DNA of 64,000 nt, from the NCBI GenBank assembly GCA_013151745.1, contig JAADHS010000202.1, positions 818 through 64,817 of the forward strand, in the 5' to 3' direction. Origin of the DNA: Gammaproteobacteria bacterium. Its GTDB lineage: Bacteria; Pseudomonadota; Gammaproteobacteria; JAADHS01. The notes under the pieces are model-generated. The model worked only from the letters and a program-made list of their open reading frames with translations. It searched no databases and had not been told where the DNA came from. This document shows positions 19,874 to 58,715 of this stretch, piece after piece. Within the stretch, counting starts at the first letter, position 1. The number at the start of each line of letters is the position of its first letter. A program made the position numbers and the translations under genes.

Positions 19874-21349
19874 GTGAAATATCGAGATCTTCGAGATTTT
19901 GTCTCTGGCTTGGAAACACGAGGGGAATTAAAACGAATTAACAAAGAAATAGATCCCAACCTGGAAATGACCGAAATTTGCGACCGGGTATTGCGCCGTG
20001 GCGGCCCTGCTTTGTTGTTCCAAAATGTGAAAGGAAGCCCGTTTCCTGTATTAGCTAATTTATTTGGTACACCCGCTCGAGTTGCGTTGGGGATGGGTCA
20101 GGAATCGGTATCGGCATTAAGAGAGGTAGGGCGATTACTGGCTTTTCTCAAAGAGCCCGAGCCCCCTCGTGGAATGAAAGATGCTTGGGAAAAACTTCCC
20201 ATATTTAAGCAAGTATTAAATATGGCACCCAAAACAGTTCATTCTGCCCCCTGTCATGAGCATATTCTTCAGGGCGAGCAAGTTGATCTGTCACAGCTAC
20301 CTATTCAAACCTGCTGGCCGGGCGATGCAGGGCCGCTTATAACTTGGGGGCTGGTTGTTACCAAGGGTCCACTTAAAGAGCGCCAGAATATTGGAATTTA
20401 TCGCCAACAAGTGATTGCTCGTAACAAGGTTATTATGCGATGGTTATCTCATCGTGGCGGCGCTTTGGATTACCTGGAGTGGCAACAAGCGCATCCGGAC
20501 GAACCCTTTCCAATCTCTGTGACTTTAGGCGCTGATCCGGCCACTATTCTAGCCGCCGTGACGCCCGTACCGGATACTTTATCTGAGTATGCTTTTGCTG
20601 GCTTGTTAAGAGGATCCAAAACAGAACTGGTAAAATGTCGTTCAAACGACTTGTTGGTACCCGCGAGCGCAGAATTTGTTTTGGAAGGTTATTTACAACC
20701 GGGAGAGGAAGCGTTAGAAGGACCTTTCGGTGATCATACAGGCTATTACAATGAAGTTGAAAAATTTCCTGTTTTTACCATTACCACCATAACGCATCGC
20801 AGCGATCCTATTTATCATAGTACTTACACCGGTAGACCACCCGATGAACCCGCGATATTGGGTGTGGCCTTAAATGAAGTGTTTGTCCCTATTTTACAAA
20901 AACAGTATCCTGAAATTATCGATTTTTATTTACCACCAGAAGGTTGTTCTTATCGCCTTGCGATTGTCAGTATTAAAAAACAGTACCCGGGTCACGCTAA
21001 AAGAGTCATGATGGGGGTCTGGTCTTTTTTGCGCCAATTTATGTATACCAAATTTGTGATCGTGACCGATGATGATATCAACGTCCGCGACTGGAAGGAT
21101 GTCATCTGGGCGATGACAACCAGAATGGATCCCGTTCGTGATACGACAACAATTGAAAACACCCCAATAGATTATTTAGATTTTGCTTCGCCTGTTTCTA
21201 ACCTGGGCTCAAAGATGGGCTGGGATGCGACAAACAAATGGCCGGGTGAAACCTCACGAGAGTGGGGTCGGCCTATCGCTATGGATCAAAGTGTTAAAGA
21301 AAGAGTTGATGAAATATGGCCTGAACTGGGGCTGGATGATGAGCCCTAG
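19874..21349 (+). CDS. ubiD: UbiD-family decarboxylase (4-hydroxy-3-polyprenylbenzoate decarboxylase)
   Basis: GTG start with an AGAGGG Shine-Dalgarno. The sequence [65 protein letters not shown] is conserved along the UbiD family. The stop TAG lies inside the terminal inverted repeat of the adjacent MITE. Confidence 0.9.
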
Positions 21350-21495
21350 GAGCCTGTCGGACTTGGGGTGAATCTGCTGTGCGGAAAAGCCATTTTTTCA
21401 GATTTTTATGCTCTTTTTACGGGTGCAAAATGGCTTTCACCCGCAGAGGGGGTACCGAGCCTCGCGACGATCACCTAAATCCGACAGGCTCCTAG
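21346..21495. mobile_element. MITE copy 1 (150 bp) of a CTAG-terminated family; perfect 15-bp terminal inverted repeats
   Basis: ctaggagcctgtcgg ... ccgacaggctcctag, with an internal inverted repeat gaaaagccatttt/aaaatggctttc and no ORF. The flanks cTA|...|TAg fit a TA duplication inside a CTAG target. Confidence 0.7.
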
Positions 21496-21695
21496 TACAC
21501 CGTCACGGCCATTTTGACGGTGTACTAGTTCAAATCCTATGCCACGAAAATAATACTTTAGCTGAAAAGCAGTTAAACCTAGATTAAAGTGCACCTTAAA
21601 CAGGACGATAACTCTGGTAAGCATTATTTTTTCATTATTGATCGCCTTTTCTTTCGAAAGGACGATCAGCTTTTAGCGGATTACCGAGGTTTTGC

Positions 21696-23081
21696 ATGAA
21701 TGTCGTAGCTACAGTGATTCGTTATCTTGATCAGCAACAGGTTGAATATAAAGTACATAAGCTTGAAACCTTTGAATCGAGTTATGAAGCGGCGCAGCAA
21801 ATGGACATATCGCCTGAAGTTGTGTTTAGAGCCATCCCCCTAGTCGATCAATTTGGCCTCATGTTAGCGATTACAGCTTCACACATGAGTTTAAATGCAC
21901 AGCGTTTATCTCAACTCCTGGGACGAGACGTTGCTCTGGCCACTAAAAAACAACTGACCGCTATCCTTTCTGATGGTGATCTGGCGTTTGTACCCCCACT
22001 AGGCGAGGCGTTTGGCTTGCGTACCATCATGAATGATAAGCTGATTAGTGCCGATATAATTTATTTGCTCGGTGGTGATAAAAGCTTATTAATCAGCCTT
22101 GCTTATCGTGATTTCCTACAGTTTCAACGCCATGCCTCACTGGTATCGGGGTTCCCGGAACCCTTACCTCAAGAAGATGTAAATATTGAAGAAACGCCAA
22201 TAACAAAGACTGCGCAGGTCAGTGATTTACGAGACTTGGTCAAAGACTTGAATCAGCTTCCTCCTATGCCAGAATTAGCACAAAAAATTTTTCAACTATC
22301 TTCCGACGAAAGTGCTGGTATATCAGAATTAGCAACGATCGTAGAAATTGATCCTAGCTTGTCTGCACAAATATTACGCTATGCTCGTTCTCCTCTTTTC
22401 AATTATCAAGGTACAATTGATAGTATACACACCGCCATTTCTCGGGTGCTGGGCTTCGGTATGGTCATGAATCTTTCGCTCGGTCTAGCGACAGCGAAAT
22501 CTTTTAAGGTTCAACAGTTGGGGCCGCTTGGTTTAGGTAATCATTGGCGACATGCGATATATAGTGCTGCTCTGGCTCAGAACTTGGCCAGCGAAGCAAA
22601 AGAAAGCCATCAATTTAATCACGGCTTAGTTTATTTGTCAGGTTTATTACATAATTTTGGTCATTTACTAATGGGTTACTTATTTAAACATGAATTCACT
22701 TTGCTAAATGAATTGGTATTAGCTAATCCAGCAACACCTGTTAGCGAGCTAGAGATGCAAGTCTTTAATATAACGCACACAGAAGTCGGTGCACTGCTGA
22801 TGGAAAAATGGCGCTTACCGGAAGAAATAATAGTCGCAACGCGACAGCACCATGCCCCTGATTATGATGGTGAGCATGCTGCCTACGCACAAATAATAAC
22901 GCTTGCTGATCATATATTGAAAGGCCACAACATGGGTGATATGCACTGTTCAGATATACCGGAAGCATTATTAACTCAATTGGGCTTAACAGAAATACAA
23001 ACTTTGATGGCAATGAATCGCTTGCTTGAGGATTGTGAAGGCTTTAATGAAATGGCAAAGCAAATGGCGAAAGCGGCATAA
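21696..23081 (+). CDS. Fusion protein: N-terminal YbaK/ProX-like aminoacyl-tRNA deacylase-like domain plus C-terminal HDOD domain
   Basis: Residues 1-150 (...AIPLVDQFGLMLAITASHMSLNAQRLSQLLG...ISADIIYLLGGDK...) resemble YbaK/ProX editing domains. Residues ~180-420 carry HDOD hallmarks (LPPMPELAQKIFQL...IVEIDPSLSAQILRYARSPLFN...HNFGHLLMGYL...). GAGG Shine-Dalgarno. Confidence 0.6.
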   Translation: MNVVATVIRYLDQQQVEYKVHKLETFESSYEAAQQMDISPEVVFRAIPLVDQFGLMLAITASHMSLNAQRLSQLLGRDVALATKKQLTAILSDGDLAFVPPLGEAFGLRTIMNDKLISADIIYLLGGDKSLLISLAYRDFLQFQRHASLVSGFPEPLPQEDVNIEETPITKTAQVSDLRDLVKDLNQLPPMPELAQKIFQLSSDESAGISELATIVEIDPSLSAQILRYARSPLFNYQGTIDSIHTAISRVLGFGMVMNLSLGLATAKSFKVQQLGPLGLGNHWRHAIYSAALAQNLASEAKESHQFNHGLVYLSGLLHNFGHLLMGYLFKHEFTLLNELVLANPATPVSELEMQVFNITHTEVGALLMEKWRLPEEIIVATRQHHAPDYDGEHAAYAQIITLADHILKGHNMGDMHCSDIPEALLTQLGLTEIQTLMAMNRLLEDCEGFNEMAKQMAKAA

Positions 23082-23083
23082 CC

Positions 23084-23227
23084 CTAGGAGCTTGTCCGAA
23101 AATGAAAAGTCTATTTGAGCCCATTTTCTTGATCATTTTCGTTAAATATGCTTAATGTTTGCCTAAAATGATCAAAAAAAATGGCTTTTTCTCGTGACGA
23201 TTTTCATTCTCGGGTAGGCTCCCCTAG
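23084..23227. mobile_element. MITE copy 2 (144 bp) of the CTAG family
   Basis: ctaggagcttgtccgaaaatgaaaag ... cttttcattctcgggtaggctcccctag. The inverted repeat shares ctaggagNctgYccgaRaat with copy 3. Flanks are cTA/TAg. The right end overlaps the last 8 codons and stop of comM. Confidence 0.7.
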
Positions 23228-24757
23228 CCCCACGCCACGATCCAGTTGGCGATAACTTATTGCTTCTGTAAGATGTATTCTTAGTATTTTTTCTTGGTTA
23301 TCCAAATCGGCCAGGGTTCTGGCTACCTTTAATATACGCTGAAATGCGCGTCCTGAAAGCTGCAATTTTTCAATTGCAGTTTCCAACAAGTGGTGATCTT
23401 CTTGCTGTAGTTGGCAATGAGCAATAAGATCTTGAGTTGTGAGCCGGCTATTAAGATAACGAGTGCGTTCGATTTGCTTTGCTCTTGCAGCGATGACCCG
23501 TTGCCGAATACTGGCGCTACTTTCTTCCTTTTTGATTTTACACGGATCAGTGATTGACAGTAAAGAAGCCGTATTTCTCTGTACCTCAATATGCAAATCA
23601 ATACGGTCAAGCAGGGGGCCGGAGACGCGGTTACGATATTTTTTAATTTGCTCTGCCGTACAATGACAGCGTTCGCTGTGATCATTCAAATAACCACAAG
23701 GACAAGGATTCATTGCTGCAACGAGTTGAAATTGAGCCGGAAACTCAGCTTGACCTTGCGCCCGGGAAATCACAATACGACCGGCTTCAAGGGGCTCACG
23801 TAGTACATTGAGAACATGTCGATTAAATTCTGTAAACTCATCCAGAAATAACACCCCATTGTGTGCAAGAGAAACTTCACCCGGTTGCGGAATAGAGCCA
23901 CCCCCCACAAGCGCGGCCGCTGAACTGGTGTGATGCGGTGCACGAAAAGGGGGATTACGCCACTGACTCGGATGAAACCCTAAAGAAGCAACGGAATGAA
24001 TCACGGCGGTTTCAAGTGCTTCATCCACAGTAAGCTGAGGCTGAATAGAGGGTAGACGACTGGCTAACATCGTTTTTCCTGTTCCTGGAGGACCAATCAT
24101 AATCAGGTTATGTCCGCCGGCTGCCGCAATTTCCAGTGCTCTTCTGGCATGCGATTGGCCAATCACCTCAGACATATCAGGTTGCTGTGTTGTTGTACTT
24201 GTCGCCGATATTTTGGGTTCACTATGCGGAAGTAGCGACAGGCGTTGCTGATGGTGCAGATGCGCGCATAATTCAAGTAAGTGACCACACGCGATCGTTT
24301 TTACATTAGGCACCAATGTCGCTTCTGCTGCATTTTCTTGCTGTAGGACGATGATTCGGCCACTGATTTTTGCTTGTGCAGCGATTGCCAATGCACCGGT
24401 AACGGGGCGAAGCACACCATTGAGCGCAAGTTCACTAATAAATTCATATTGATTTAGTTCTTTATTCGGAATTTGCCCTGATGCGGCCAATAACCCAATG
24501 GCAATAGCCAGGTCGAAACGGCTTCCTTCTTTACGTATATCAGCAGGCGCAAGATTGACTGTGATACGTTGTCTTGGAAATTTAAAGTGGCTATTTAACA
24601 AGGCAGCCCGAACACGGTCTTTGCTTTCTTTTACCGCAGTTTCTGGCAACCCAACTATGGAAAAAGAAGGCAAACCATTAGCCAGGTGAACCTCAACCGT
24701 AACTAATGGCGCAGAGGCACCAACAAGGGCGCGACAATAAGCAATGGCAAAATTCAT
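23204..24757 (-). CDS. comM: YifB/ComM-family Mg-chelatase-like AAA+ ATPase
   Basis: MNFAIAYCRALVGASAPLVTVEVHLANGLPSFSIVGLPETAVKESKDRVRAAL matches E. coli YifB, with Walker A GPPGTGKT. The C-terminal 8 codons are encoded inside the MITE inverted repeat. Confidence 0.85.
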   Translation of the reverse strand: MNFAIAYCRALVGASAPLVTVEVHLANGLPSFSIVGLPETAVKESKDRVRAALLNSHFKFPRQRITVNLAPADIRKEGSRFDLAIAIGLLAASGQIPNKELNQYEFISELALNGVLRPVTGALAIAAQAKISGRIIVLQQENAAEATLVPNVKTIACGHLLELCAHLHHQQRLSLLPHSEPKISATSTTTQQPDMSEVIGQSHARRALEIAAAGGHNLIMIGPPGTGKTMLASRLPSIQPQLTVDEALETAVIHSVASLGFHPSQWRNPPFRAPHHTSSAAALVGGGSIPQPGEVSLAHNGVLFLDEFTEFNRHVLNVLREPLEAGRIVISRAQGQAEFPAQFQLVAAMNPCPCGYLNDHSERCHCTAEQIKKYRNRVSGPLLDRIDLHIEVQRNTASLLSITDPCKIKKEESSASIRQRVIAARAKQIERTRYLNSRLTTQDLIAHCQLQQEDHHLLETAIEKLQLSGRAFQRILKVARTLADLDNQEKILRIHLTEAISYRQLDRGVGLGEPTRE

Positions 24758-24803
24758 ACCCTCTATTATGTCTAAGGGAATGAGCTCAGTCTGTCAGGAA
24801 AAG

Positions 24804-25052
24804 TTATTTTTTATTGTAAGCTTTTTCCAATTCGCTTATTTTCTCTTCTAACCAAATGACTTGCTGTTGAGTATTGGCGAGCACCTTTTGCTGAACATTA
24901 AATTCGTCGCGTGTAACCAGGTTAAGGTCGCTAAGTTTTGCTTGTAGTAGGGCGCGCATGTTTTTTTCAATATCTTTAGTGATCTCTGTTACGCCGCCAG
25001 GCACAAGTTCAACAAGCCGGTTAGCGAGATCGTCCAGTATTTTAGGGTTCAT
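24804..25052 (-). CDS. ubiK: Ubiquinone biosynthesis accessory factor UbiK (YqiC/BMFP family)
   Basis: 82-aa coiled-coil protein beginning MNPKILDDLANRLVELVPGG... and continuing LVTRDEFNVQQKVLANTQQQVIWLEEKISELE. Confidence 0.7.
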   Translation of the reverse strand: MNPKILDDLANRLVELVPGGVTEITKDIEKNMRALLQAKLSDLNLVTRDEFNVQQKVLANTQQQVIWLEEKISELEKAYNKK

Positions 25053-25347
25053 TTTTTGTTCCTTTTTCTATGTTTACCCAGTTTAGTTGATTTTCCAGAA
25101 TTATACTCGCCCTAAGACAAGGTACACTTTATGCGCTAAAATAAAGCGGTCTGCTTAGAGAAAAGTAACTTTTTCGGCGCATGCAAGCAGATATTATGGA
25201 GGCAAAACTAATAAACTGTTGTTTTTAAAAGACAACATTTATGATATGGTTAATGCGTTACTTAAGCTGGGCATTTTAATTCATGTTGATTCATTCTGTA
25301 AAAACTATATTACAGTGAAATTAAAACACGATTCGTTATTTAAATAG

Positions 25348-25707
<360 letters not shown>

Positions 25708-25752
25708 AAAAAACTAAAAGCTTACTTAATTATTTGATTTGGAGATAGAAAA

Positions 25753-26997
25753 GTGGAAGCAATATTAGAAGTAAAATATGCGCTTGATACATTCTACTTT
25801 CTCGTGTGTGGTGCACTTGTAATGTGGATGGCAGCAGGCTTTACCATGCTTGAAGCCGGATTAGTCAGAGCGAAAAATACAACAGAAATTCTAACCAAAA
25901 ATATCGCCTTGTATGCTATCGCCTGTACCATGTATTTGATATGTGGGTATAACATTATGTACGGTGATCCGATCAGCTCATTCATCCCGGGGTTTAGTGT
26001 CTTTGGTCTCACCGATCATACTGCAGAACTAGTGACAGCAGGAGGCGATGACGCACCGTACTATTCTAAGCTATCTGATTTTTTCTTCCAGGTTGTCTTT
26101 GTTGCGACAGCCATGTCTATCGTCTCTGGTGCCGTAGCAGAGCGAATGAAACTTTGGGCTTTTTTAACTTTCTGCGTTGTCTTAACTGGCTTCATTTATC
26201 CCGTGCAGGGTTTCTGGAAATGGGGTGGTGGTTTTCTCAACGAACTGGGCTTTCTTGATTTTGCGGGTTCGGGTGTTGTTCATATGACTGGTGCTGTTGC
26301 AGCATTAGCAGGGGTACTGCTTTTAGGGGCTCGTAAAGGAAAATATGGAAAAGATGGCCGTATTAATCCGATTCCAGGTGCCAACTTACCTTTAGCGACA
26401 TTAGGAACTTTTATTCTTTGGCTGGGGTGGTTTGGCTTTAATGGCGGCTCAGAACTGAAACTATCCGATGTTGGTGAAGCCAATGCCGTTGCCCTGATTT
26501 TTGTGAATACTAATGCAGCAGCAGCAGGGGGGGTTATCGCCGCTTTGATCACAGCGAGGTTAATGTTCGGTAAAGCGGATTTAACAATGACGCTCAATGG
26601 TGCATTAGCCGGTTTGGTTGCCATTACCGCAGAACCCCTGACGCCGAGTCCACAACTTGCATTGTTAATTGGTGCCGTGGGTGGCATGATCGTCGTTTTC
26701 TCTATAATCGCGCTTGATAAAATTAAAATTGATGATCCAGTCGGTGCGATTTCCGTACATGGCAGTGTCGGCATTTGGGGATTGTTTGCCGTATTACTCT
26801 CCAATCCCGATGCGACATTGGTTGCCCAGCTTACCGGTATTGGAGTCATTTTTGCTTGGGTTTTTGTGACTAGCTTGATTGTCTGGGGTATCATCAAACT
26901 GGTTATGGGTCTTCGCGTCAGCGAAGAGGAAGAGGAAGAAGGTATGGACTTCGTTGATTGTGGAATGGAGGCCTATCCAGAGTTTACTTCTAAATAA
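25753..26997 (+). CDS. amtB: Ammonium transporter AmtB
   Basis: GTG start with a GGAGA Shine-Dalgarno and 11 predicted TM segments. Amt signature motifs are present (DFAGSGVVHMTGAVAALAG, GTFILWLGWFGFNGGS), and the gene is paired with glnK. Confidence 0.9.
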   Translation: MEAILEVKYALDTFYFLVCGALVMWMAAGFTMLEAGLVRAKNTTEILTKNIALYAIACTMYLICGYNIMYGDPISSFIPGFSVFGLTDHTAELVTAGGDDAPYYSKLSDFFFQVVFVATAMSIVSGAVAERMKLWAFLTFCVVLTGFIYPVQGFWKWGGGFLNELGFLDFAGSGVVHMTGAVAALAGVLLLGARKGKYGKDGRINPIPGANLPLATLGTFILWLGWFGFNGGSELKLSDVGEANAVALIFVNTNAAAAGGVIAALITARLMFGKADLTMTLNGALAGLVAITAEPLTPSPQLALLIGAVGGMIVVFSIIALDKIKIDDPVGAISVHGSVGIWGLFAVLLSNPDATLVAQLTGIGVIFAWVFVTSLIVWGIIKLVMGLRVSEEEEEEGMDFVDCGMEAYPEFTSK

Positions 26998-27215
26998 TCC
27001 TAGAAAACGCAGTTGGACGCGAATGTACCCCAAGGGCACTTCTTCCAGGGTGTATAGTGCAAGATATTGATTCGAATAACGTAGCGGGAAAAATCGTAGT
27101 CACCTTGATGGTGATGAGATTTTTTCCCGCATAGTTAGGTGGATCAAGAGCTTGTGCTATACATCGTGGATCAACTGCGTTTTTTAGGATAATGGTTGAG
27201 GCCATTTGCAAGCTA

Positions 27216-27246
27216 AGCCGGAGCCATAATGCTCCGGCTTTTTTTG
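27216..27246 (+). terminator. Rho-independent terminator (glnK-amtB side; may act bidirectionally)
   Basis: agccggagc-cataat-gctccggct is a 9-bp GC-rich stem followed by TTTTTTT. It abuts the stop of the convergent CDGSH gene. Confidence 0.6.
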
Positions 27247-27483
27247 TTAAATTTGATTGTGGCTACCGTCACAAAAAGGAGGTTTTTTCGCATGCTTACA
27301 GCCACACAATGAGACAACTTGATTTTTTTCCAGGCTAAACTTTATCGGCGAAAAATCTAAACCTTGGTGAGAACCATCGCAAAAAGGCTGTTTAGAGCTT
27401 TTGCCACAACTACACCAGTAATAATCTCCGGCATCAAGTTTAGCAATATAAGGTGCTTTTTGTGGTATTTCTGGATCCGACAT
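27247..27483 (-). CDS. CDGSH iron-sulfur domain protein (two CDGSH motifs)
   Basis: AAGGAG Shine-Dalgarno. Two copies of C-x-C-x(7-9)-P-x-CDGSH are present (CSCGKSSKQPFCDGSH and CGCKHAKKPPFCDGSH). Confidence 0.85.
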   Translation of the reverse strand: MSDPEIPQKAPYIAKLDAGDYYWCSCGKSSKQPFCDGSHQGLDFSPIKFSLEKNQVVSLCGCKHAKKPPFCDGSHNQI

Positions 27484-27717
27484 TCTTTTTCTCCTTCTCT
27501 CTTATAACTTGAATTTTAAGTATAAAGCGATTCCTGACAAAAATATAAAGTTTTAGATGTGCACTACCCCGACGATATTAATCAGCTCGGCAGAATTAAC
27601 TAATTTTTAGGTTGATAACGGCCAAGTGCATTGGTTATCTGAATTAGTCTCGACCTTATCTGTGACATGTCGTGTTGGCAGGGAGGTCAAAACGTTATTA
27701 CGAGGCACGCTTGCTTT

Positions 27718-28809
27718 TTAGATGTTAAAGCGAAAATGGATGACATCACCATCAGCAACAATATAATCTTTACCTTCTGAGCGCCATTTTCCGGCTTCTT
27801 TGGCGCCAGCTTCACCCTGATATTGAACAAAATCTTTGTATGCTATAGTTTCTGCGCGAATAAAGCCTTTCTCAAAATCGGTGTGGATGACGCCCGCTGA
27901 TTGAGGGGCTGTGGCGCCTTTTTTGATTGTCCAGGCACGTACTTCTTTAACGCCGGCGGTGAAATAGGTTTGCAAGTTAAGTAGTTCATAGCCAGCACGA
28001 ATCACTCGATTGAGTCCCGGTTCTTCTAAACCTAAATCGGCTAAAAATTCCGCTTTATCTTCGTCGGCAAGCTCGACAATGTCTGCTTCTATCGCCGCAC
28101 AAACTGGCACAACGGAGGCACCTTGTTTTGCCGCATGTTCGCGTACTTTATCCAGCCAGGGGTTATCGGTAAAGCCATCATCAGCAACGTTGGCGACAAA
28201 CATAGTGGGTTTGTCAGTGAGCAGGCATAAGTCGCTCAATATTAAACGTTGATCCGCATTCAGTGTCATGGAACGAACCGATAGCGCTTCGTTCAGGTGT
28301 GCCTGTACTTGCTCCAGCAAGGCCAGACGAATTTTTGTATCCTTGTCACCACTTTTTGCTAATTTTGCAGTACGTAGAATATTTTTTTCTACCGAGTCCA
28401 AGTCGGCCAGAGCCAGTTCAGTGTCAATGATTTCGATATCCCGTAAGGGATCAATACTGCCAGAAACATGCGTGATATCGTCATCGATAAAACAACGTAC
28501 CACATGGGCTATGGCATGGGTTTCGCGGATGGTGGCTAAAAACTGGTTGCCTAAGCCTTCGCCCTTGGATGCACCTTCGACTAGTCCGGCAATATCAACA
28601 AACTCCATTACCGCAGAAATGATTTTTTGCGGTTTGACTATTTTTGATAAGGCTTGCATTCTGGAGTCAGGTACAGAAACCATGCCAACATTGGGTTCAA
28701 TGGTGCAAAATGGATAGTTTGCGGCCTCGATGCCGGACTCTGTCAGGGCATTAAACAGCGTTGACTTTCCTACGTTCGGCAAACCTACAATGCCACATTT
28801 AAAACCCAT
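27718..28809 (-). CDS. ychF: Redox-regulated ribosome-binding ATPase YchF
   Basis: [23 protein letters not shown], with a TGS C-terminal domain; 363 aa. It sits downstream of pth, as is typical. Confidence 0.9.
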
Positions 28810-28818
28810 AGCAATCCC

Positions 28819-29394
28819 TTATTTACTGTGCAACTGATTCATTAATTTTTGGTGTTCACCTTGTGCGGCTAAGGGTAGTACGTCAATAGCATCGGCGATA
28901 GCGACATCAAGTTCTTGTTTATCAAGTTTGCTCGCTTCATGCAAGACATAGCGCGAAACTTCTGAGCTTTGGCCGGGGTGGCCTATGCCTATTCTCAAGC
29001 GGGCAAAATCATTGCCACCGAGGGCGGCGATCAGGCTACGTAAGCCATTGTGACCACCATGCCCTCCCGCCTGCTTAAACCGCACGGTGCCGGGTAACAA
29101 ATCCAGCTCATCGTGAACAACTAATATATTTTGCCGAGGAATTTTGTAATACGCTGCCAGAGCAGCAACAGCTTGGCCGCTACGATTCATAAAGGTCTGT
29201 GGTTTAAGCAGCCAGCATTCTTTTTCTTGCAGGCTGATTTTGCAGGCTTCACCGGAAAATTTATTTTCTTTGCGAAATGTTTGGCTGTGTTGACTGGCTA
29301 AGGCGTCAAGCAGCCAAAAACCAGCGTTATGACGCGTTTTTTCATATTCATTACCTGGATTACCAAGGCCAACAATGAGTTGTATTTCTGTCAA
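28819..29394 (-). CDS. pth: Peptidyl-tRNA hydrolase
   Basis: IQLIVGLGNPGNEYEKTRHNAGFW; 191 aa. Confidence 0.9.
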   Translation of the reverse strand: MTEIQLIVGLGNPGNEYEKTRHNAGFWLLDALASQHSQTFRKENKFSGEACKISLQEKECWLLKPQTFMNRSGQAVAALAAYYKIPRQNILVVHDELDLLPGTVRFKQAGGHGGHNGLRSLIAALGGNDFARLRIGIGHPGQSSEVSRYVLHEASKLDKQELDVAIADAIDVLPLAAQGEHQKLMNQLHSK

Positions 29395-29403
29395 AAAAAC
29401 AAT

Positions 29404-30054: not shown

Positions 30055-30206
30055 AATAGGTTCTCCAAATAACGTCAAAAATTTTAGCTGGCACTTCAAC
30101 CTAGCACTTATAATATTTCTATATTTGTAAGGACGACGTGAGCGAGAGGAGGCTTACACTTACTTAACACCCTCTCTTGCGTAACTATTCTCGTGTACGC
30201 CTCTAT

Positions 30207-31160: not shown

Positions 31161-31205
31161 GACTATACACCTTACACGCCTGGAGAATCATTTTGTCTCA
31201 AAATA

Positions 31206-31280
31206 TGGCTGGGGCGCCAGGATTCGAACCTGGGTATGCAGGGATCAAAACCCTGTGCCTTACCGCTTGGCGACGCCCCA
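31206..31280 (-). tRNA. tRNA-Gln (anticodon UUG), CCA encoded
   Basis: Reverse complement: tggggcgtcgccaagcggtaaggcacagggttTTGatccctgcatacccaggttcgaatcctggcgccccagcca. It is near-identical in architecture to E. coli tRNA-Gln (U1-A72, G73) and sits between prs and ispE, as in many gammaproteobacteria. Confidence 0.9.
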
Positions 31281-31360
31281 AAAACTCTACTATACACAGA
31301 GCTGGCTTTTAGGTGATTGTTGTCAATCCCCCTTCTTCAGCCCTGTGAAAACCTCCGTCA

Positions 31361-32832: not shown

Positions 32833-32899
32833 GAGGCGTAATAAAATATCAAGTAAAAAATTTAGGATAATACAAAATTACAGTGAAATGACTTTTCAG

Positions 32900-34675
32900 C
32901 TATTTATCCAGGCGTTCCATCAATTCTGTAATAATATTTTTTTTAGCGGTTGGGCCTGTTTGTTTTAAAGCTCGCGCCCACACTTTTCGTGCAGCGTCCT
33001 GCTCACCGGATACCCAGAGTACTTCACCCAAGTGGGCGGCAACCTCTACATCCATTTTTAACTCAAGAGCCCGGCTAAGATATTTTTTAGCTTCATCGTA
33101 ATGACCCATGCGATAATGCACCCAGCCCATGCTGTCTACAATATGGAAATCATTGGGGCGCAGTTCCAGGGCACGTGAGATCAGTTCCAATGCCTCTTCA
33201 TAGCGTTCGGTACGATCAGCCAGAGTATAACCCAAGGCATTTAATACCTCCGAATTGTTTGGGTCACGTGTCAGAATGGCTCGTAGATCCTTTTCCATTA
33301 TGTCTAGTCTGTTTGTCTTGTCGGCGACCATAGAGCGCGCATAGAGCAAATCTGCATTATCGGGAAACTCTTTTAATGCCTCGTTATAAACAGAAAAAGC
33401 GGTTTCATAATCTTCAACGTCGATCAATACTTCGCCTTCAACGAGGCTCAAACGAAGTGTTTGTGAGGGTCGCTGTGCTTTAATGGCATTAATTAACGCC
33501 CTGGCGTTATCGATATCGCCTTCACGTGCAGTGATGACAATAATTCGAATTTGCGCATTGATATAATGTTCGCCCTCCGAAATAGCCGAATACCGTTTTT
33601 TCGCTTGCGCATTATTGCCTCGCTCTTCTTCAAGTCGGCCAAGATAATAATCCACCTCGAAAATTCGATTACCGCTATTTTTGAGTTGCAAAAAATAAGA
33701 TTCCGCATCATCAATATGCCCCAGTTGCAGTGCGATATAGCCGATAGCAAATATCACTTCTTCCGTATCCGGTTGAAGCTTGTCAATTTTTTTAAATTGC
33801 AGCAGGGCATCAGGCATACGACCGTCATCGGCCAATTGACGCGCATAAAACAATCGATAATCAATGACATCGGGAGAACGTTTGATCTGTTTTTCGAGAA
33901 AAGACAAAGTGGCGTTATTTTGGCCTAAGGCAGTTAAAACCCGGGCTTTTTGCAGTACGGCAGGGATCCAGTCTTTCTTCAAGAGCAAAACCTGATCAAT
34001 GGCTTTGGAAGCGGTTTTATTTTCCTCCAGACGCAGAGCTAAATGGCTTAAAGCAAATAAGGCATCGGAATTATCTTCATGTCGATCAACAAGGCGCTGC
34101 ATTAAATCCAAAGCTGCACGCTTGTCCCTTTCACGGCTTAACAGCCCTGCCACAATCATAAAGCCGCCATCCGCTTCTGACTCGTTACTATCCAATACGC
34201 GTTCCATGTGCTCTAATGCAGCATCAACGTCACCCGTGCGGATATACAGTGCGATCAATAATTGACGAGCTTCATCATTTTTAGGGTCTAGCTCCACCCA
34301 CAGTTGAGCTGCGCTCAATGCAGACTCATTATCTCGTGCATAAACAGCAACGCGACTTGCTCTTTCTGCGAGACGTGCATCCCGGGTAGATTGAGCCAGT
34401 TTGCTATACAGACGAACAGCAACATCCAGATGCGCTCTACGCGCGGCAATATCGGCCAACAGCAAATCGTAAAGCTGATCTGCCGTTAATGCAGAGTCAG
34501 GTATGACAGCTGAAGTTTGAGTGCGGGTCACTTCTTTTTTGGTTTGTGTTTGTTGCTCTGCTTGTTCCGTGATTTTTTTTGTCGATGAGTTTGTCACCAA
34601 TGGCGGTGTAGAAGCACAGCCTGCTAAAATCATGAGTGATAAAAATACTGGAACGGTTATAGACATCAACCTCAT
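32900..34675 (-). CDS. TPR-repeat lipoprotein (conserved neighbour of lolB, divergent from hemA)
   Basis: Lipobox MILAGCAS, followed by many tetratricopeptide repeats; 591 aa. Confidence 0.75.
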   Translation of the reverse strand: MRLMSITVPVFLSLMILAGCASTPPLVTNSSTKKITEQAEQQTQTKKEVTRTQTSAVIPDSALTADQLYDLLLADIAARRAHLDVAVRLYSKLAQSTRDARLAERASRVAVYARDNESALSAAQLWVELDPKNDEARQLLIALYIRTGDVDAALEHMERVLDSNESEADGGFMIVAGLLSRERDKRAALDLMQRLVDRHEDNSDALFALSHLALRLEENKTASKAIDQVLLLKKDWIPAVLQKARVLTALGQNNATLSFLEKQIKRSPDVIDYRLFYARQLADDGRMPDALLQFKKIDKLQPDTEEVIFAIGYIALQLGHIDDAESYFLQLKNSGNRIFEVDYYLGRLEEERGNNAQAKKRYSAISEGEHYINAQIRIIVITAREGDIDNARALINAIKAQRPSQTLRLSLVEGEVLIDVEDYETAFSVYNEALKEFPDNADLLYARSMVADKTNRLDIMEKDLRAILTRDPNNSEVLNALGYTLADRTERYEEALELISRALELRPNDFHIVDSMGWVHYRMGHYDEAKKYLSRALELKMDVEVAAHLGEVLWVSGEQDAARKVWARALKQTGPTAKKNIITELMERLDK

Positions 34676-34972
34676 CGAAATCTCCTCAATTGGGACTTAG
34701 TTTTAAAGATCAGTACCAATTCTATTCAAAAACAGCGAATAAATAACTTGACTCTTAACGATAGACCGCTAAATCAGTTATTAGTTACTACGGTCTTATG
34801 CTTCATTTTCTAAAGGGAAAGGGTTTCTCTCGCAAAACCTGTATTGCCTGCTGGCCTTACTATATAATGCTTGAGGGTTAAGGCAAGAGCCGTAGTCAAT
34901 ACTCAATAGAGCACATTTTAAAGATAGCGTTTTTGCAGAAAGAAAACAAGAACTTAAACCACAATTAAAGTC

Positions 34973-36247
34973 ATGCCAATTATTGCGTTAGGAATAAACC
35001 ACAAGACTGCTCCGGTTGAAATAAGGGAGAAAGTCTCTTTTTCCCAGGAAAAGCTGGAGGAAGCGCTACGTGACCTCACCTCACAATCCAATATTAATGA
35101 GGCGGCTATTTTATCAACATGTAATCGCACCGAGCTGGTTTGTCATACTGAAAATAACGAAGACAGCGCAACGATTATCGACTGGTTCCGCCATTACCAC
35201 AAACTAAGCGGGGAAGAAGTAGACCCCTATATTTACACTCACCCCGAGCAGCAAGCCGTGCAGCACATGCTTCGTGTTGCATGTGGCCTGGATTCATTAA
35301 TCCTGGGTGAACCGCAAATTCTGGGACAAATAAAAACGGCTTATCGCCAAGCCGTAGACGCGGGTACCGTCGGTACCTTGCTCGGCAAGCTTTTTCAATA
35401 TACTTTTTCCGTTGCTAAACAAATTCGCTCTGATACGGCTATTGGTTCCAGTTCCGTATCCGTTGCTTTTGCTGCAGTCAGCCTGGCTAAACAAATATTC
35501 AGCGACTTTGCTTCGCATACCGCATTACTGATTGGTGCGGGAGAAACCATCGAACTGACGGCTCGCCATTTACACGAAAATGGCATTGGTCGCATTATCA
35601 TTGCCAATCGTACGGTTGAAAAGGCTCATGCGCTAGCAAAAGAATTTAATGGTTACGCTATTGTTTTGCAAGATATTCCAGGGCATCTTGCCGAAGCCGA
35701 CATCATCATTTCATCGACAGGCAGTCCCCTGCCTATACTGGGCAAAGGGGCGATTGAACGAGCGTTAAAAACACGTAAACATCAACCCATGTTGATGGTG
35801 GACATTGCGGTACCCCGAGATATTGAACCGGAAGCAGGCGAGCTGGATGATGTCTATTTATATACGGTAGATGACCTGCAAGAAATTATTGAAGAAGGTC
35901 TGCGTTCACGGCAGCAAGCCGCTAAGCAAGCTGAAGAAATTATTGACCATGAAGTGATTCAATTCATGGGCTGGCTGCGATCTTTGGAGGCGGTTGGCAC
36001 CATTCGGGAATATCGTAAAAAAGCAGAAGAAACCCGTGACAACGAACTCAGCAAAGCACAGCGTATGTTGGCTAAGGGCGAAGATCCAGAAAAAGTACTG
36101 GCTTGGCTTGCTCATGGTTTGACCAATAAAATAATACATACACCTTGTACGCAGATGAAACAAGCTGGATTTGATGACCGTTTTGAGGTCATTGAAACAG
36201 CCCGGCATATTTTTGGCCTAGAGCAATTAACAAATAAGATTAAATAA
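34973..36247 (+). CDS. hemA: Glutamyl-tRNA reductase
   Basis: [23 protein letters not shown]...LSTCNRTEL...; 424 aa. Confidence 0.95.
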
Positions 36248-36252
36248 ATAAC

Positions 36253-37338
36253 GTGAAACCCTCCATTAGAAGTAAGCTGGAAAATATCTCAGAGCGTTTG
36301 CAAGAGCTGAGTGCCTTATTGTCAGAGTCCGACATCATTAGCGATCAAAACAAATTCCGCGAACTATCTAAGGAATATGCGCAAATTGCCCCCCTCGTTA
36401 AGTGTTTTGATCGATATAATGGCACCTTGGCCGATTTGCAAGCGGCTAACGAGATGCTTAAGGATGAGGATCTCGACGTCAGAGATATGGCCAAAGAAGA
36501 AATAAACGAAGCGACAGAGCAAAAAAACAATTTAGAACAAGAGCTGCAAATATTGCTTCTGCCAACAGATCCTCACGATCAAAGCAATACCTTTCTGGAA
36601 ATTCGAGCGGGTACGGGTGGCGATGAAGCGGCTATTTTTGCGGGTGATCTGTTTCGTATGTACCTGCGTTATGCGGAACTCAACAACTGGCAAGTTGAAG
36701 TTCTCAGTGAAAATCTGGGAGAGCATGGGGGTTATAGAGAGGTTATTTCACGCATCATTGGCCAGAACGCTTACTCGAAACTAAAATTCGAATCGGGTGC
36801 GCATCGTGTACAGCGTGTGCCTGAAACAGAGTCGCAGGGGCGAGTGCATACTTCGGCCTGTACGGTTGCGGTGATGCCTGAAGTGGATGAGGTCGAAGCC
36901 ATAGAAATTAATTCCGCTGATCTTAAAGTTGATACTTACCGTGCTTCAGGCGCGGGAGGGCAGCATGTCAATAAAACAGATTCCGCCATTCGTCTTACTC
37001 ATTTACCCACCGGCGTGGTTGTGGAATGCCAGGATGAACGCTCGCAACATAAAAACCGAGCGCGAGCCATGTCTTTGTTGCAGGCGAGGTTGCTGGCTGC
37101 TGAACAAGAAAAACAACAACTTGAGCAAGCCAGTGAACGTAAGAAACTGGTAGGCAGTGGTGACCGCTCTGAACGCATCAGAACATACAATTATCCACAG
37201 GGGCGGGTTACCGATCATAGAATCAATCTGACGCTATATAAGCTGGAAGAAGTGGTTACCGGCAATCTTGGTCTTGTTATTGACCCTCTTATCCACGAGC
37301 ACCAGGCCGAGTTACTTGCGGAAATGACAGAAACCTGA
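36253..37338 (+). CDS. prfA: Peptide chain release factor 1
   Basis: The GGQ motif ([16 protein letters not shown]) and the PxT context are present; 361 aa. Confidence 0.95.
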
Positions 37339-37350
37339 GCTTGCTTTGCT

Positions 37351-38193
37351 ATGACGACCTGCGTCTCTCAACTCCTCACGCAAGCTTCATTACGCTTAAA
37401 CTCGCAAGCTGAACCTCGTTTAGAGGCTGAAATTTTGCTGGCCTATTGCTTGAAAAAACCTCGTGTTTTTCTTTATGCTTGGCCGGATCACTCCGTTAAA
37501 ATTGAGCAGAAAGTTTTTTTTGAACAGCTTGTTGCTCGCCGAAGCACAGGTGAACCCGTCGCTTATATCTTGGGTTATCAGGAGTTTTGGTCGCTCACTT
37601 TGCAGGTAACCCCGGCAACATTAATACCTCGCTCAGAAACAGAATTACTCGTTGAGCGCGCCTTAAGCTTTATATCTGAAAATAAAAACTTGTCCATTCT
37701 TGATTTAGGTACGGGCAGTGGTGCTATTGCGCTTGCGATTGCAAGAGAGCGACCTGCTTGTAAAATCACGGCCACGGATCGCTGCGTGAACGCTCTGGCC
37801 GTAGCTCAAAATAATACAAAAAAAAATCATATTACTAATGTGCATCTGATGCAAAGCCACTGGTTTAGCGCATTAAATTCAGGTGTTTTTGATATCATCG
37901 TGTCCAATCCGCCTTATATTTCCGAAAATGATCCGCATCTGTATCAGGGCGATTTGCCCTATGAGCCAGATATCGCATTAACCAGTCGAGATGACGGTTT
38001 GGCTGACATTAAAAAAATTATTGGCGAGGCCTCCCGATATTTAAAAACAAACGGTTGGTTGTTGTTGGAGCATGGATACCATCAGGCTGAAAAAGTGAGA
38101 GCATTGTTTGGAGAGCAGGGCTATCAATCCATCCATACTGAACTGGACTATGCAGGACATCCCCGTGTGACGTTGGCACAAAAAATGGTTTAA
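37351..38193 (+). CDS. prmC: Release-factor glutamine N5-methyltransferase PrmC (HemK)
   Basis: NPPY motif (VSNPPYIS) and SAM-binding LDLGTGSGAIA. Conserved hemA-prfA-prmC order. Confidence 0.9.
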   Translation: MTTCVSQLLTQASLRLNSQAEPRLEAEILLAYCLKKPRVFLYAWPDHSVKIEQKVFFEQLVARRSTGEPVAYILGYQEFWSLTLQVTPATLIPRSETELLVERALSFISENKNLSILDLGTGSGAIALAIARERPACKITATDRCVNALAVAQNNTKKNHITNVHLMQSHWFSALNSGVFDIIVSNPPYISENDPHLYQGDLPYEPDIALTSRDDGLADIKKIIGEASRYLKTNGWLLLEHGYHQAEKVRALFGEQGYQSIHTELDYAGHPRVTLAQKMV

Positions 38194-38325
38194 TTTCGAG
38201 TCTTTAATCTTTAGAAAAAAACTCAGAAATAGGTATGATCCTATGCGACATGGGGGGTAAAACCTGAATTTCAAACGCTATGAGTATATGATATGAACGG
38301 GATGTGATCTGAAATACAAAAGGCA

Positions 38326-38706
38326 ATGCATGTGATGGATAAAAATAAACTGGATCAGGTGGTGGCCAATGCTCAAAAAAATAAATTGAAGCGTGAGGCC
38401 GGTTATAGAGAAAAAGCGCTTAAATTATATTCATGGATATGTGGTCGTTGCTCACGAGAGTTTACGCGAGCGAATCTTCAGGAGTTGACCGTGCACCACC
38501 GTAATCATGATCACGATTATAATCCAGAAGATGGTAGTAATTGGGAATTGTTATGCGTCTATTGTCACGATAACGAACATCAACGTTTATTAGACGGCGA
38601 GGGTACCAACAATACCGATGGGGCAGGGCAGGCAGCCACACATAATCCCTTTGCTGGACTGTCTGATATGCTGGAACCGAAAAATAAAGATCGTCGTAAA
38701 AAATGA
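38326..38706 (+). CDS. yajD: HNH nuclease YajD
   Basis: GYREKALKLYSWICGRCSREFTRANLQELTVHHRNHDHDYNPEDGSNWELLCVYCHDNEH is near-colinear with E. coli YajD. Confidence 0.85.
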   Translation: MHVMDKNKLDQVVANAQKNKLKREAGYREKALKLYSWICGRCSREFTRANLQELTVHHRNHDHDYNPEDGSNWELLCVYCHDNEHQRLLDGEGTNNTDGAGQAATHNPFAGLSDMLEPKNKDRRKK

Positions 38707-38941
38707 ATGGGCGTAAAATACATTCATTATTCCTGGGTTTATAGTTTTTCGGTTTTGTTTCCTGGGTCGTACTGGTATTGATGTTCCTGTAGATAATCAG
38801 AACGAATTCGTACAATACAATCTGACTTCCAAGCAGGGAAGTTCCCTGTGTTTATTCCTTGATCATGCCTTTTTAAGGTATAATGTCGCGCTTTTCGGTT
38901 GGCCTCTTGCTTCATGAAATACTTCAATCTAGGAATGTTAT

Positions 38942-40534
38942 ATGTTATCCACTGCCAATATTACGATGCAGTTTGGGGCTAAGCCCTTGTTTGAAAATGT
39001 CTCTGTTAAATTCGGTCAGGGTAACAGCTATGGCCTGATTGGCGCTAATGGCTGTGGTAAGTCCACGTTTATGAAGATTTTGGGAGGGGATCTGGAGTCC
39101 AGCGCCGGGACGGTAAGCAAAGACCCTGATGAGCGTATTGGCAAGTTACGACAGGATCAATTTGCCTTTGAAGATTTCTCCGTTATAGATACTGTTATTA
39201 TGGGTCATGCCGAATTATGGGCCATCAAAAAAGAACGGGATCGTATTTACTCGCTGCCTGAAATGAGTGAAGAAGAGGGTATGAAGGTAGCCGAACTAGA
39301 GACTGAATTTGGCGAAATGGATGGCTATACTGCTGAATCGCGTGCGGGCGAATTATTGCTGGGTCTGGAAATTCCAACTGAACAACACGATGGTCCCATG
39401 AGCGCTATCGCCCCTGGCTGGAAGTTACGTGTTTTGCTCGCCCAGGCTTTATTTGCTGATCCTGATATCATGTTGCTTGATGAGCCCACCAATAATCTGG
39501 ACATCAATACCATTCGCTGGTTAGAAGAAATATTAAATCAACGTCACTGTACCATGATCATTATTTCGCATGACCGGCATTTTTTAAACAGTGTTTGCAC
39601 CCATATGGCTGATTTGGATTATGGTGAGTTACGTATTTACCCAGGCAATTACGATGAGTATATGCTGGCATCTACCCAGGCGCGCGAACGTCAATATGCT
39701 GATAATGCCAAGAAAAAATCTCAAATTTCTGAGCTTCAAGCGTTTGTCGCGCGCTTTTCAGCAAACGCATCCAAGGCAAAACAAGCCACCTCACGCGCTA
39801 GACGAATGGAAAAAATTCAGCTTGATGAGATCAAGCCCTCTAGTCGGGTCAATCCCTTTTTGCGTTTTGATCAGGATAAAAAATTACATCGCCAGGCTTT
39901 AGAGATTAAAAGCATCAGCAAAGGCTTTGCTGATGAACCTGTATTTAACAATTTAAAGCTGGCGCTTGAGGTGGGTGAACGATTAGCAATTATTGGTCCC
40001 AACGGTATTGGTAAATCGACCTTGCTTAAAATTTTGATCGGTGAACTTGAGCCAGACTCAGGTGTTATTAAATGGTCTGAAAATGCGAATATCGGCTATT
40101 GCGCGCAAGATCATGCCGAAGATTTTGAGCAAGATATCAATCTTTTCGATTGGATGAGTCAGTGGGGGCAGCCCGGCGACGATGAACAGGTTATTCGCGG
40201 TACGCTGGGTCGCTTGCTCTTTTCTCGAGATGACATTAACAAATCGGTCAAAGTTATTTCTGGAGGCGAGCAAGGCCGCATGTTATTCGGTAAGTTAATG
40301 TTGCAAAAAGCCAATATCTTGGTGATGGACGAACCCACTAATCATCTGGATATGGAGTCTATAGAATCACTCAACATGGCATTAGAAAACTACCCGGGTA
40401 CTTTGATTTTTGTCAGTCACGACCGTGAGTTTGTATCATCACTGGCGACTCGCATCATCGAACTCACGCCAAGTGGTGTCGTTGATTTCATGGGTAGCTA
40501 TGATGAGTATTTACACAAACAAGGTGTAGAATAA
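38942..40534 (+). CDS. ABC-F family ATPase (YbiT-like; two ABC cassettes, no TMD)
   Basis: Two Walker A motifs ([18 protein letters not shown]) and two ABC signature motifs (ISGGEQ...; ...LSGGWK-like); 530 aa, the size of YbiT. Confidence 0.8.
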
Positions 40535-40568
40535 ATAGGAGTCAGCGCGCAATAAGGTGCCTGTTTTC

Positions 40569-41714
40569 TTATCTGGGTTTGGGTCTTTCTCCAACGATGG
40601 CTTTGATTGTGGTTGTTTCACGATTGCGAATGAGTTTGAGCTGAATTTCTGTTTCAGGTGGGACGCTGGTAATTGCGTTGATCAAGTTGCTGGCTTTGTG
40701 AATTTCTTTGTTGTCAATGTGGGTAATAATGTCGCCTGGTAGCAGTCCAGCCAAGTGAGCAGGGCCATTTTTTAAAACGCCTGCGACTAAAACGCCTGTT
40801 TTTTCCGGTAGACCAAAAGAATCAGCAAGTGCTGTTGTTATGTTTTGCACTTCTATTCCCAGCCAGCCGCGTATAGCGTGTCCATATTCAAGAATTTGTT
40901 GCATTACATTTTTGGCCAGATGGATAGGAATAGCAAAGCCGACGCCCTGGGAGCCGCCGGATCGTGAAAATATGGCGGTGTTAATGCCTACGAGTTCGCC
41001 ACGGGCATTGATTAATGCTCCCCCCGAATTTCCGGGGTTGATGGCGGCATCAGTTTGTATAAAGTTTTCAAAAGTACTGATGCCCAGTTCGCTACGTCCG
41101 GTGGCGCTGACGATACCCATGGTGACGGTTTGTCCTATGCCAAAGGGGTTGCCTATGGCGAGAACAACGTCGCCTATGCGCAGCTCGTCTGAATGGCCTA
41201 ATGTAATAGCGGGTAAGTTTTCCGCGGGGATGCGGAGGACGGCGATATCGGTCTCAGGATCGCTGCCGACAACCACAGCCTTTGAGCTGCCGCCATCACG
41301 AAAGGCTACCAGAATTTCATCGGCTTCGGCAATGACATGATTGTTTGTCAGGATATAACCGTTTTTGCTAATAATGACCCCGGATCCCAAGCTGTTTTCG
41401 ATCTTTTTCTTGGGCCCGAGTTGGTCGCCGAAAAAGCGGCGAAACGCCGGGTCGTCAAAAAGAGGATGTAAGCGGCGTGTCGTTACTTTCGCGGTGAAAA
41501 TATTGACCACTGCTGGTGCCGCATTTTCAACGGCGATGCTATAAGAAGCGGGTGAATTTGATCTTGTGGTATCACGGGACGGTGCTTCTGTAATCTCTAC
41601 AGAGGGGCGCAAATCAACTTCACCTGGGCGGAATATAACGATCAAAAGAAAGCCTGCCAAGACGCCAACGGCCAGACCTTGAACTAGGTAGGGAGCTATT
41701 TTTCGTAAATCCAT
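40569..41714 (-). CDS. DegS/AlgW-type periplasmic serine endoprotease (S1C, single PDZ, N-terminal TM anchor)
   Basis: Catalytic triad contexts are present (TNNHV, D, GNSGGAL), and a PDZ domain closes the C-terminus; 381 aa. It precedes nif3/ybgI, as algW/degS typically does. Confidence 0.8.
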   Translation of the reverse strand: MDLRKIAPYLVQGLAVGVLAGFLLIVIFRPGEVDLRPSVEITEAPSRDTTRSNSPASYSIAVENAAPAVVNIFTAKVTTRRLHPLFDDPAFRRFFGDQLGPKKKIENSLGSGVIISKNGYILTNNHVIAEADEILVAFRDGGSSKAVVVGSDPETDIAVLRIPAENLPAITLGHSDELRIGDVVLAIGNPFGIGQTVTMGIVSATGRSELGISTFENFIQTDAAINPGNSGGALINARGELVGINTAIFSRSGGSQGVGFAIPIHLAKNVMQQILEYGHAIRGWLGIEVQNITTALADSFGLPEKTGVLVAGVLKNGPAHLAGLLPGDIITHIDNKEIHKASNLINAITSVPPETEIQLKLIRNRETTTIKAIVGERPKPR

Positions 41715-41762
41715 TTTTCGAAAGCGGCTTATTTATAAGTCTAGTCAGTTTGAATGGCGAAG

Positions 41763-42083
41763 CTAGGAGGCTGTCCGAGAATAGAGAGCCGACTGCGGAA
41801 AATCCATTTAGGCCATATTTTCCGATCAATTTCGTTAAAGATGCTCATATAGTAAGTACCCCGCCATAATTTTTTAATATTCATTGGTCTTTGTTTACGT
41901 GACTCTGCGTTACAGCTCCTGTCACAATAGCTCACTTCGCTGTGCCTTGACTCACGCGAAAAGTCCTGCATAAATTGAGTTAAAATAATTATGGCGGGGT
42001 ACTTATTCGCCTCGTTTGGTCGAAAAATCTGACCCAAAACGACTTCCCCTCGCTACGATTTCTATTCTCGGGCAGTCTCCTAG
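41763..42083. mobile_element. MITE copy 3 (321 bp) of the CTAG family, carrying a nested second inverted-repeat element (41851-42008)
   Basis: Outer inverted repeat: ctaggaggctgtccgagaatagaga ... tctattctcgggcagtctcctag, with flanks cTA/TAg. Inner element: (a)gtaagtaccccgccataatt ... aattatggcggggtacttatt, a 20/21-bp inverted repeat 157 bp apart. Confidence 0.7.
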
Positions 42084-58712: not shown

Positions 58713-58715
58713 TCC

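Follow-up and report, generated by a model that had tools for sequence, protein, structure and literature searches.

A family of CTAG-inserted miniature elements with IS1182-type ends and a conserved hairpin, found as three degenerate copies in a gammaproteobacterial contig

A stretch of 64,000 nucleotides from a Gammaproteobacteria bacterium of the lineage JAADHS01 (assembly GCA_013151745.1, contig JAADHS010000202.1, positions 818 to 64,817; hereafter the window) carries three copies of a MITE, a small transposable element with inverted repeats. A preliminary description of the window ascribed them to an IS630/Tc1-type transposase. On the evidence of sequence matches, the parent family is IS1182 and not IS630, because the autonomous elements that carry the MITE ends encode IS1182-family transposases. 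It is very likely that the family derives from IS1182-family DDE transposases, a family related to IS5, and we infer that it is mobilised by them in trans.

Copy 1 (positions 21346-21495) is 150 bp long including both CTAGs, copy 2 (23084-23227) 144 bp and copy 3 (41763-42083) 321 bp. They share one orientation (minus strand), and CTAG is present at six of their six ends, so that the location and boundaries given in the preliminary description hold. The inverted ends that it regarded as common to the copies are perfect over 16 nt in copy 1 (CTAGGAGCCTGTCGGA) and good in copy 3. However, the right end of copy 2 is imperfect (CTAGGGGAGCCTACCCGA, with a 1-nt insertion), and the copies fall into two end-sequence subfamilies, GGAYTTAGG in copy 1 and CCGAGAAT in copies 2 and 3. 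Allowing up to three mismatches, the end motif found five true ends and one chance match in the window, and an extended right-end pattern matched at the three copies only (0.00 matches expected by chance). A profile hidden Markov model (HMM) of 168 positions, built from 75 copies in other organisms and searched against the window with nhmmer, matched exactly these three copies and nothing else, all on the minus strand. Copy 1 aligned across HMM positions 1-168 with internal gaps (E 2.9e-17), the apical part of its hairpin being deleted relative to the profile, and copy 2 aligned with two internal deletions (E 1.4e-14). Copy 3 is otherwise full-length and is interrupted at the apical loop; its halves matched separately, HMM 1-80 at 42083-42004 (E 1e-13) and HMM 89-168 at 41840-41763 (E 1.5e-12). 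Its length is explained by a separate 149-bp element that sits in this loop. Since all three copies are damaged and tblastn detected no gene for an IS1182 transposase in the window (other transposase families were not screened), the window copies are probably immobile relics. The earlier view of them as non-autonomous, MITE-type elements in CTAG sites, with no matching transposase in the window, is retained.

The family is widely distributed. One genome per prokaryotic species was scanned with the right-end pattern by exact matching, which gave at least 122 matches in at least 120 loci. All 122 matches listed were genuine copies, conserved well beyond the search pattern. The hosts among the matches listed include many Gammaproteobacteria (Halomonas, Marinobacter, Methylococcales, Thiotrichaceae and others), Nitrosomonas and other Betaproteobacteria, Zetaproteobacteria, Nitrospirota, Nitrospinota, Binatia and Thermodesulfobacteriota, as well as single metagenome-assembled genomes labelled Verrucomicrobia and Gemmatimonadales. 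Several genomes hold at least 3-8 loci each. The canonical element is about 162 bp long, runs from GGAG to CTCC and has no open reading frame (ORF), and the partner end was found at 161-163 bp in the great majority of the copies listed. The three bases outside the ends are mostly CTA or TAG, and the next base outward is random. Many copies lie at contig ends, as is expected of a repeat, which indicates that these elements break assemblies. In a few short derivatives of 68-94 bp (loci L047, L119, L090, L001 and L032), the terminal stem is retained together with the GTAGCGAG/CGCAGTAG internal loop, and the upper hairpin is lacking. Ends without a partner were considered as possible full-length parents and rejected, as all those inspected were truncated or degenerate copies. 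A blastn search of plasmids with a whole canonical copy gave one unannotated match. The end sequences retrieved only unrelated primers in a full-text literature search, and the literature searched contained no mention of the MITE sequence family.

The parent was identified through the ends. In a blastn search of plasmids, a 35-nt MITE end matched the borders of a 1.6-kb Mesorhizobium element, in which CTAG is followed by CAGCCTGTCGGACTTAGCG on one side and preceded by CAGTCCGACAGGCTG on the other. This element encodes a 457-aa IS1182-family transposase (NF033551, 352.9 bits against a cutoff of 270; Pfam DUF772 and DDE_Tnp_1_6). Termini of the form CTAG plus GAGNCTGTCSGA also bound ISKpn6 (ends CTAGGAGCCTGCGCGG, and CTAG plus GAGCCTGCGCGGCAGA), ISMno38 (CTAGGAGCCCGTCCGAGTAA, and CTAG plus GAGCCCGTCCGAGTAA) and other plasmid IS1182 elements, namely those of Bradyrhizobium (CTAGGAGCTTGTCTGG, and CTAG plus GAGCTTGTCTGGATA), Mesorhizobium and Komagataeibacter (both CTAGCAGCCTGTCGG; in the latter also CTAG plus CAGCCTGTCGGGTTGGGG). 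The GenBank annotation of the plasmid elements agrees with IS1182. A Halococcus IS1182 element ends in GAGCCTGTCCAAGAA, its flanking 4 nt not having been read.

Metagenomes provided a larger sample. A scan for the MITE end together with the N-terminal transposase motif LLPP....WLP recovered at least 120 elements, the ends of which are identical to the MITE across 20-26 nt; among those listed, 68 start with CTAGGAG and 52 with CTAGCAG. Both ends were present in 73 elements, all but two of them 1.53-1.66 kb long, and the far end, which the search did not constrain, was CTAG in 72 of the 73. Both end subfamilies of the MITE have full-length insertion sequence (IS) counterparts (L177 and L241 with CTAGGAGTCTGTCGGACTTAGGC; L153, L167 and L181 with CTAGGAGYCTGTCCGAGAAATAG). 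All five metagenomic transposases tested belong to the IS1182 family (NF033551, 342-393 bits, the same cutoff), as do six of six when the plasmid element is included. The preliminary description had proposed a search for an autonomous IS630/Tc1 parent with matching ends; this search returned IS1182-family elements instead, and the annotation of the window is corrected from IS630 to IS1182. The terminal 20-26 nt of the MITE are the terminal inverted repeats of IS1182-family IS. In L172 (1641-1678), the left-end sub-terminal motif ATCTGCTGCG is similar to the conserved MITE motif CGCAGTAGAT when the latter is read on the opposite strand. This hints at an origin of the conserved internal loop of the MITE from IS sub-terminal sequence. 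An end of the GGAGAAAAA type, as in L172, is also present in L148, L152, L180 and L214, without the exact sub-terminal motif of L172.

We propose that a transposase encoded elsewhere binds the MITE ends and that CTAG, a rare tetranucleotide, is the site into which it inserts the element. CTAG would then stand on both sides, the duplication being either of 4 bp (CTAG) or of the central TA. Duplications of 2 and 4 bp predict the same sequence because CTAG is palindromic. The flanking tetranucleotide, or its centre, is duplicated. Matched non-canonical flanks, CGAG on both sides in the independent copies L075 and L116 and CTGG on both sides in L057, are real target duplications and not the result of decay. 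No direct repeat was evident by eye, without counting, beyond the CTAGs in the printed flanks of full-length elements. Abutting elements have one CTAG in common, and elements pile up side by side because each insertion regenerates CTAG on both sides. Repeats of 4 bp are listed for published IS1182-family elements and their MITEs (PMC3281130, PMC3852290, PMC11578231). ISPse1, also of the IS1182 family, was captured in a trap plasmid with a 4-bp repeat (PMC3281130), and the literature searched states no target duplication for ISKpn6.

One pair of filled and empty sites was found among the fetched loci. The filled site of L038 reads GCGC-CAAG, the element (GAG to CTC) and CTAG-AGCTGG, and the empty site of L081 reads GCGC-CAAG-AGCTTG. 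Together with the matched non-canonical flanks and the abutting elements, this pair supports transposition. The copy in L038 (770-1120) is inserted into another repeat, which is present at least twice in L081 (4725-5015). The edge of this repeat, AGCTTGCGCGGAC, resembles the end of ISKpn6, and the repeat is probably another IS1182-type element, as far as its sequence indicates. Near position 4950 of L081 a degenerate MITE end (CAGGTCCTAAG) is followed by a further copy of the same repeat.

Several observations do not sit easily with a family that IS1182 transposases mobilise by duplicating CTAG. The similarity between MITE and IS ends after the terminal 27-42 nt. Neither the window nor the 120 genomic loci with copies yielded an IS1182 transposase. 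MITE and IS1182 were seen in one genome only on plasmid pMPC6-328K of Pseudomonas sp. MPC6 (L121, 6001-6500), where a canonical MITE has one CTAG in common with a truncated IS1182 end (CAGCCTGTCGAACTTGAGC); about 60 C-terminal transposase codons are left on the opposite strand, and neither the MITE nor the IS is annotated in the record. The duplication in the L038/L081 pair is imperfect, with CAAG on one side and CTAG on the other. At the end that the search left unconstrained, conservation falls gradually from C (99%, 74/75) through T (96%) and A (88%) to G (87%). The C that adjoins the element end is thus as conserved as the end repeat, while the outer A and G of CTAG stand at 87-88%, and this fits slightly better with an element that includes the C, and so with a TA duplication, than with a neutral 4-bp repeat. 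The comparison with empty sites in relatives, which the preliminary description had called for, was only partly informative. Copy 2 is absent from four relatives, in favour of an insertion in the lineage of the window, but its junction in these genomes (about 75% identical) has diverged, so that the comparison is not clean and shows absence with the exact target unreadable. Finally, simple binding of a transposase to the ends does not require the observed constancy of length (to within 1 bp in different phyla), the covariation over the full hairpin or the asymmetry between strands. When the ORFs of at least 120 aa in the 120 loci were clustered, no recurrent neighbour transposase emerged; the recurrent neighbours are all ubiquitous genes (ABC ATPases, histidine kinases, GGDEF/EAL proteins, AmtB/GlnK, response regulators and MnmE).

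The constancy of length, the covariation and the strand asymmetry, together with conserved asymmetric internal loops, are the basis of an explanation that adds to the MITE origin and does not replace it. It is conceivable, though we consider it doubtful, that the element of about 160 bp is kept across phyla as a structure, its hairpin being selected on one strand while unpaired with the other, either as RNA or as single-stranded DNA (ssDNA), and that it is not just a pair of transposase-binding ends. Such a hairpin could act as a transcript-end or stability element, as a small RNA or as a single-stranded intermediate of transposition or replication. The 75 full-length copies fold as one long imperfect hairpin. 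The proportion of paired cells is 94.2%, whereas shuffles give 74.4% and slid controls no more than 50%; the strand used to predict the structure was also the one used to count the pairs. Double-change cells number 791 against 244, and compensatory changes were found in 39 of the 58 pairs, in all parts of the stem. Near the ends the covariation partly tracks the two IS lineages; it is also present through the middle and the apex. Unpaired motifs are conserved as well (GATC-GTAGCGAG opposite CGCAGTA-GATC, and GAGGCGAATAG..CTATTTAACGAAAA at the apex), and the length of 161-163 bp is maintained across phyla. The body of the element is a single long imperfect hairpin that compensatory changes have preserved, with the greater stability on one of its strands.

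Strand asymmetry was observed in two ways. Cells with G.U outnumber those with A.C by 360 to 64, and 34 pair columns favour G.U against 9 for A.C. Part of this excess lies in three high-frequency columns, which may be founder features, and the counts are 217 and 62 when these columns are removed. The sense strand is the more stable in 74 of the 75 copies (-93.9 against -78.3 kcal/mol with RNA parameters; -49.3 against -42.7 with DNA parameters). However, window copies 1 and 2 show no such asymmetry, which is consistent with their decay. The orientation relative to neighbouring genes is also without significant bias (36 against 28, p 0.38; co-directional contexts, 18 against 8), and the only Rfam matches were two tRNAs in the window, with none in 8 loci that carry canonical copies. 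Selection on one strand, if real, would point either to a stage of IS1182-family transposition that involves ssDNA or RNA, or to an RNA function at the level of the host by which the retention of copies is favoured. To our knowledge, the transposition mechanism of the IS1182 family has not been characterised.

The origin first suggested, in which the copies are MITEs of an IS630/Tc1-mariner-type transposase that duplicates TA inside CTAG, has some points in its favour. The boundaries can be read as C-TA, GGAG to CTCC and TA-G, and the base next to the end repeat is as well conserved as the repeat itself, which fits a 2-bp duplication. IS630 itself prefers CTAG and duplicates TA. Nevertheless, this origin is very improbable. 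All the autonomous elements found with MITE ends encode IS1182-family transposases, none of which was matched by an IS630 model at E 1e-10 or better. Next to about 120 genomic copies no gene of the IS630 type was observed, no direct search with an IS630 transposase having been run. A REP/REPIN-like palindromic repeat, moved by a single-copy HUH transposase (RAYT, IS200/IS605-like) that acts on DNA hairpins, would agree with the whole-length hairpin, with the GTAG-containing motifs conserved in both arms and with a strand asymmetry compatible with a single-stranded substrate, but it is hardly credible for an element that shares identical ends with DDE-type IS1182 elements, whose flanking tetranucleotide is duplicated and near whose copies no recurrent Y1-transposase gene occurs.

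The position of the copies at stop codons is a consequence of the target. No palindromic tetranucleotide is rarer in the window than CTAG. It occurs at 65 sites, while base composition predicts 243 and a Markov estimate 98, and the MITE ends account for 6 of the 65. Across the family, 22 of 168 element ends have a flanking CTAG whose TAG terminates an ORF of 100 codons or more, and another 20 of the 168 lie within 30 nt after a stop. Many copies stand exactly at gene ends because C-TAG often holds an amber stop codon. The preliminary description placed all three window copies immediately after stop codons of housekeeping genes, a pattern that arises because the target sequence CTAG contains TAG. 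This is correct for copy 1, whose left CTAG includes the TAG stop codon (21347-21349, plus strand) of ubiD (ORF 19874-21349; NF008175, 939.8 bits, cutoff 788), and for copy 2, which starts 2 nt past the TAA of the HDOD gene. It does not apply to copy 3, which lies in a divergent promoter region, 48 nt upstream of the start of a gene for a DegS-like protease of the Do family (minus strand, ATG at 41714); a Nif3-like gene has the copy 135 nt upstream. An exact-protein look-up of the Nif3-like gene gave no match. Copy 3 thus occupies the promoter region of an envelope-stress protease gene.

The insertion of copy 2 altered yifB. The last 7 codons and the stop codon of yifB (23204-23227, minus strand; ORF 23204-24757; TIGR00368, 647 bits) lie within it, and these 7 codons together with one flanking codon encode a new YifB tail, GLGEPTRE, in place of the ancestral ITRPSRSARPSH seen in a protein alignment with relatives. 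The C-terminus has accordingly changed from QLDRGITRPSRSARPSH in relatives to QLDRGVGLGEPTRE in the window. The length of the protein, 517 aa, is unchanged, and 7 residues of the differing 8-residue tail are encoded inside the element. In four relatives whose HDOD proteins are 73-75% identical (including L128, 5349-5386, L130 and L131), the HDOD gene and yifB are convergent, overlap by 38 bp and lack the element, whereas in the window the two genes are 122 bp apart (23081-23204) because copy 2 lies between them. One insertion has therefore rewritten the C-terminus of YifB and parted two genes that overlap in relatives. For copy 1 there is no empty site among the relatives, in which ubiD is not upstream of the HDOD gene. 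Although relics, the window copies have thus had local effects on three genes.

The element nested in copy 3 (41855-42003) is 149 bp long, has perfect 17-nt ends (AGTACCCCGCCATAATT) and is unrelated to its host MITE family; neither the window nor the fetched loci yielded a second copy. TA flanks it on each side (41853-41854 and 42004-42005), and this is the signature that the preliminary description had ascribed to the host family. A 37-bp palindrome with a perfect stem (CTAGTACACCGTCA to TGACGGTGTACTAG; 21492-21528) adjoins copy 1 and has the right CTAG of the latter in common. It may be the original 3' hairpin of ubiD, the first CTAG of which would have served as the insertion site of copy 1. 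Three further intergenic palindromic or inverted-repeat elements, with one copy each in the window, were noted at 4560-4721 (162 bp, arms of 29 nt), 9216-9331 (116 bp, 22 nt) and 58491-58716 (226 bp, 30 nt). The first two are palindromic over their whole length, and the first lies just upstream of a tRNA at 4845-4918. Their presence suggests that the source genome holds several MITE-like families.

MITEs derived from IS1182 are a kind of element already known, and the present sequence family appears to be a new member of it. Those reported so far come from single species, Paracoccus yeei and Methanosarcina acetivorans, and the unusual aspects of the present family are limited to its spread, as one sequence family with a conserved hairpin, across many environmental phyla and to the strand-specific hairpin itself. 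It also offers a convenient handle on the recognition of ends and CTAG targets by IS1182 transposases.

Among autonomous elements, ISKpn6, ISMno38 and other IS1182 members resemble the MITE in the signature CTAG, then G or C, then AGCCNGTC, and in their CTAG boundaries; they differ from it in encoding a transposase of 436-463 aa within 1.45-1.66 kb, and only the terminal 11-26 nt are held in common. Among MITEs of other origins, those of the IS630 family have boundaries compatible with TA flanks inside CTAG; however, the ends of the window copies match IS1182, and no association with IS630 was found, no direct IS630 transposase search having been run. ERIC and Correia-type MITEs are intergenic, 100-170 bp long and folded into hairpins over their whole length, and are often co-transcribed with their neighbours. 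They are unrelated to the present family in sequence and have other host ranges, both being narrow in distribution. MITEPsy1 of Pseudomonas syringae is likewise small, non-autonomous and targeted to CTAG. It is of the IS5 type, inserts at CTAG or YTAA and duplicates 4 nt, and its transposition was demonstrated experimentally in a trap plasmid (PMC3189936); in contrast to the present family it is 100 nt long, has other ends (GGAAGGTCTGAAAAAGCC) and has a parent of the IS5 group.

The closest known systems are themselves derived from IS1182. In Methanosarcina acetivorans, the MITEs that derive from ISMac2 measure 160 and 169 bp, with inverted repeats of 25-26 nt and a 4-bp direct repeat (PMC3852290, Table 4). 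They are similar to the present family in size and in having a putative IS1182-family parent, a likeness drawn from their published description, and they differ in their archaeal host. MITEPye1 of Paracoccus yeei, which is 159 bp long, intergenic and without an ORF, has ends that start with GAGGCTGT and are IS1182-like, a flanking palindromic 4-bp repeat, GGCC, and a predicted long stem-loop, and it occurs in 1-3 copies (PMC11578231). It thus resembles the present family in size, lack of an ORF, IS1182-like ends, palindromic 4-bp flank and stem-loop. However, the two are unrelated beyond about 8 terminal nt (sequence in Table S7 of PMC11578231) and are flanked by GGCC and CTAG, respectively, and while MITEPye1 is found in a single species, the family described here spans several phyla.

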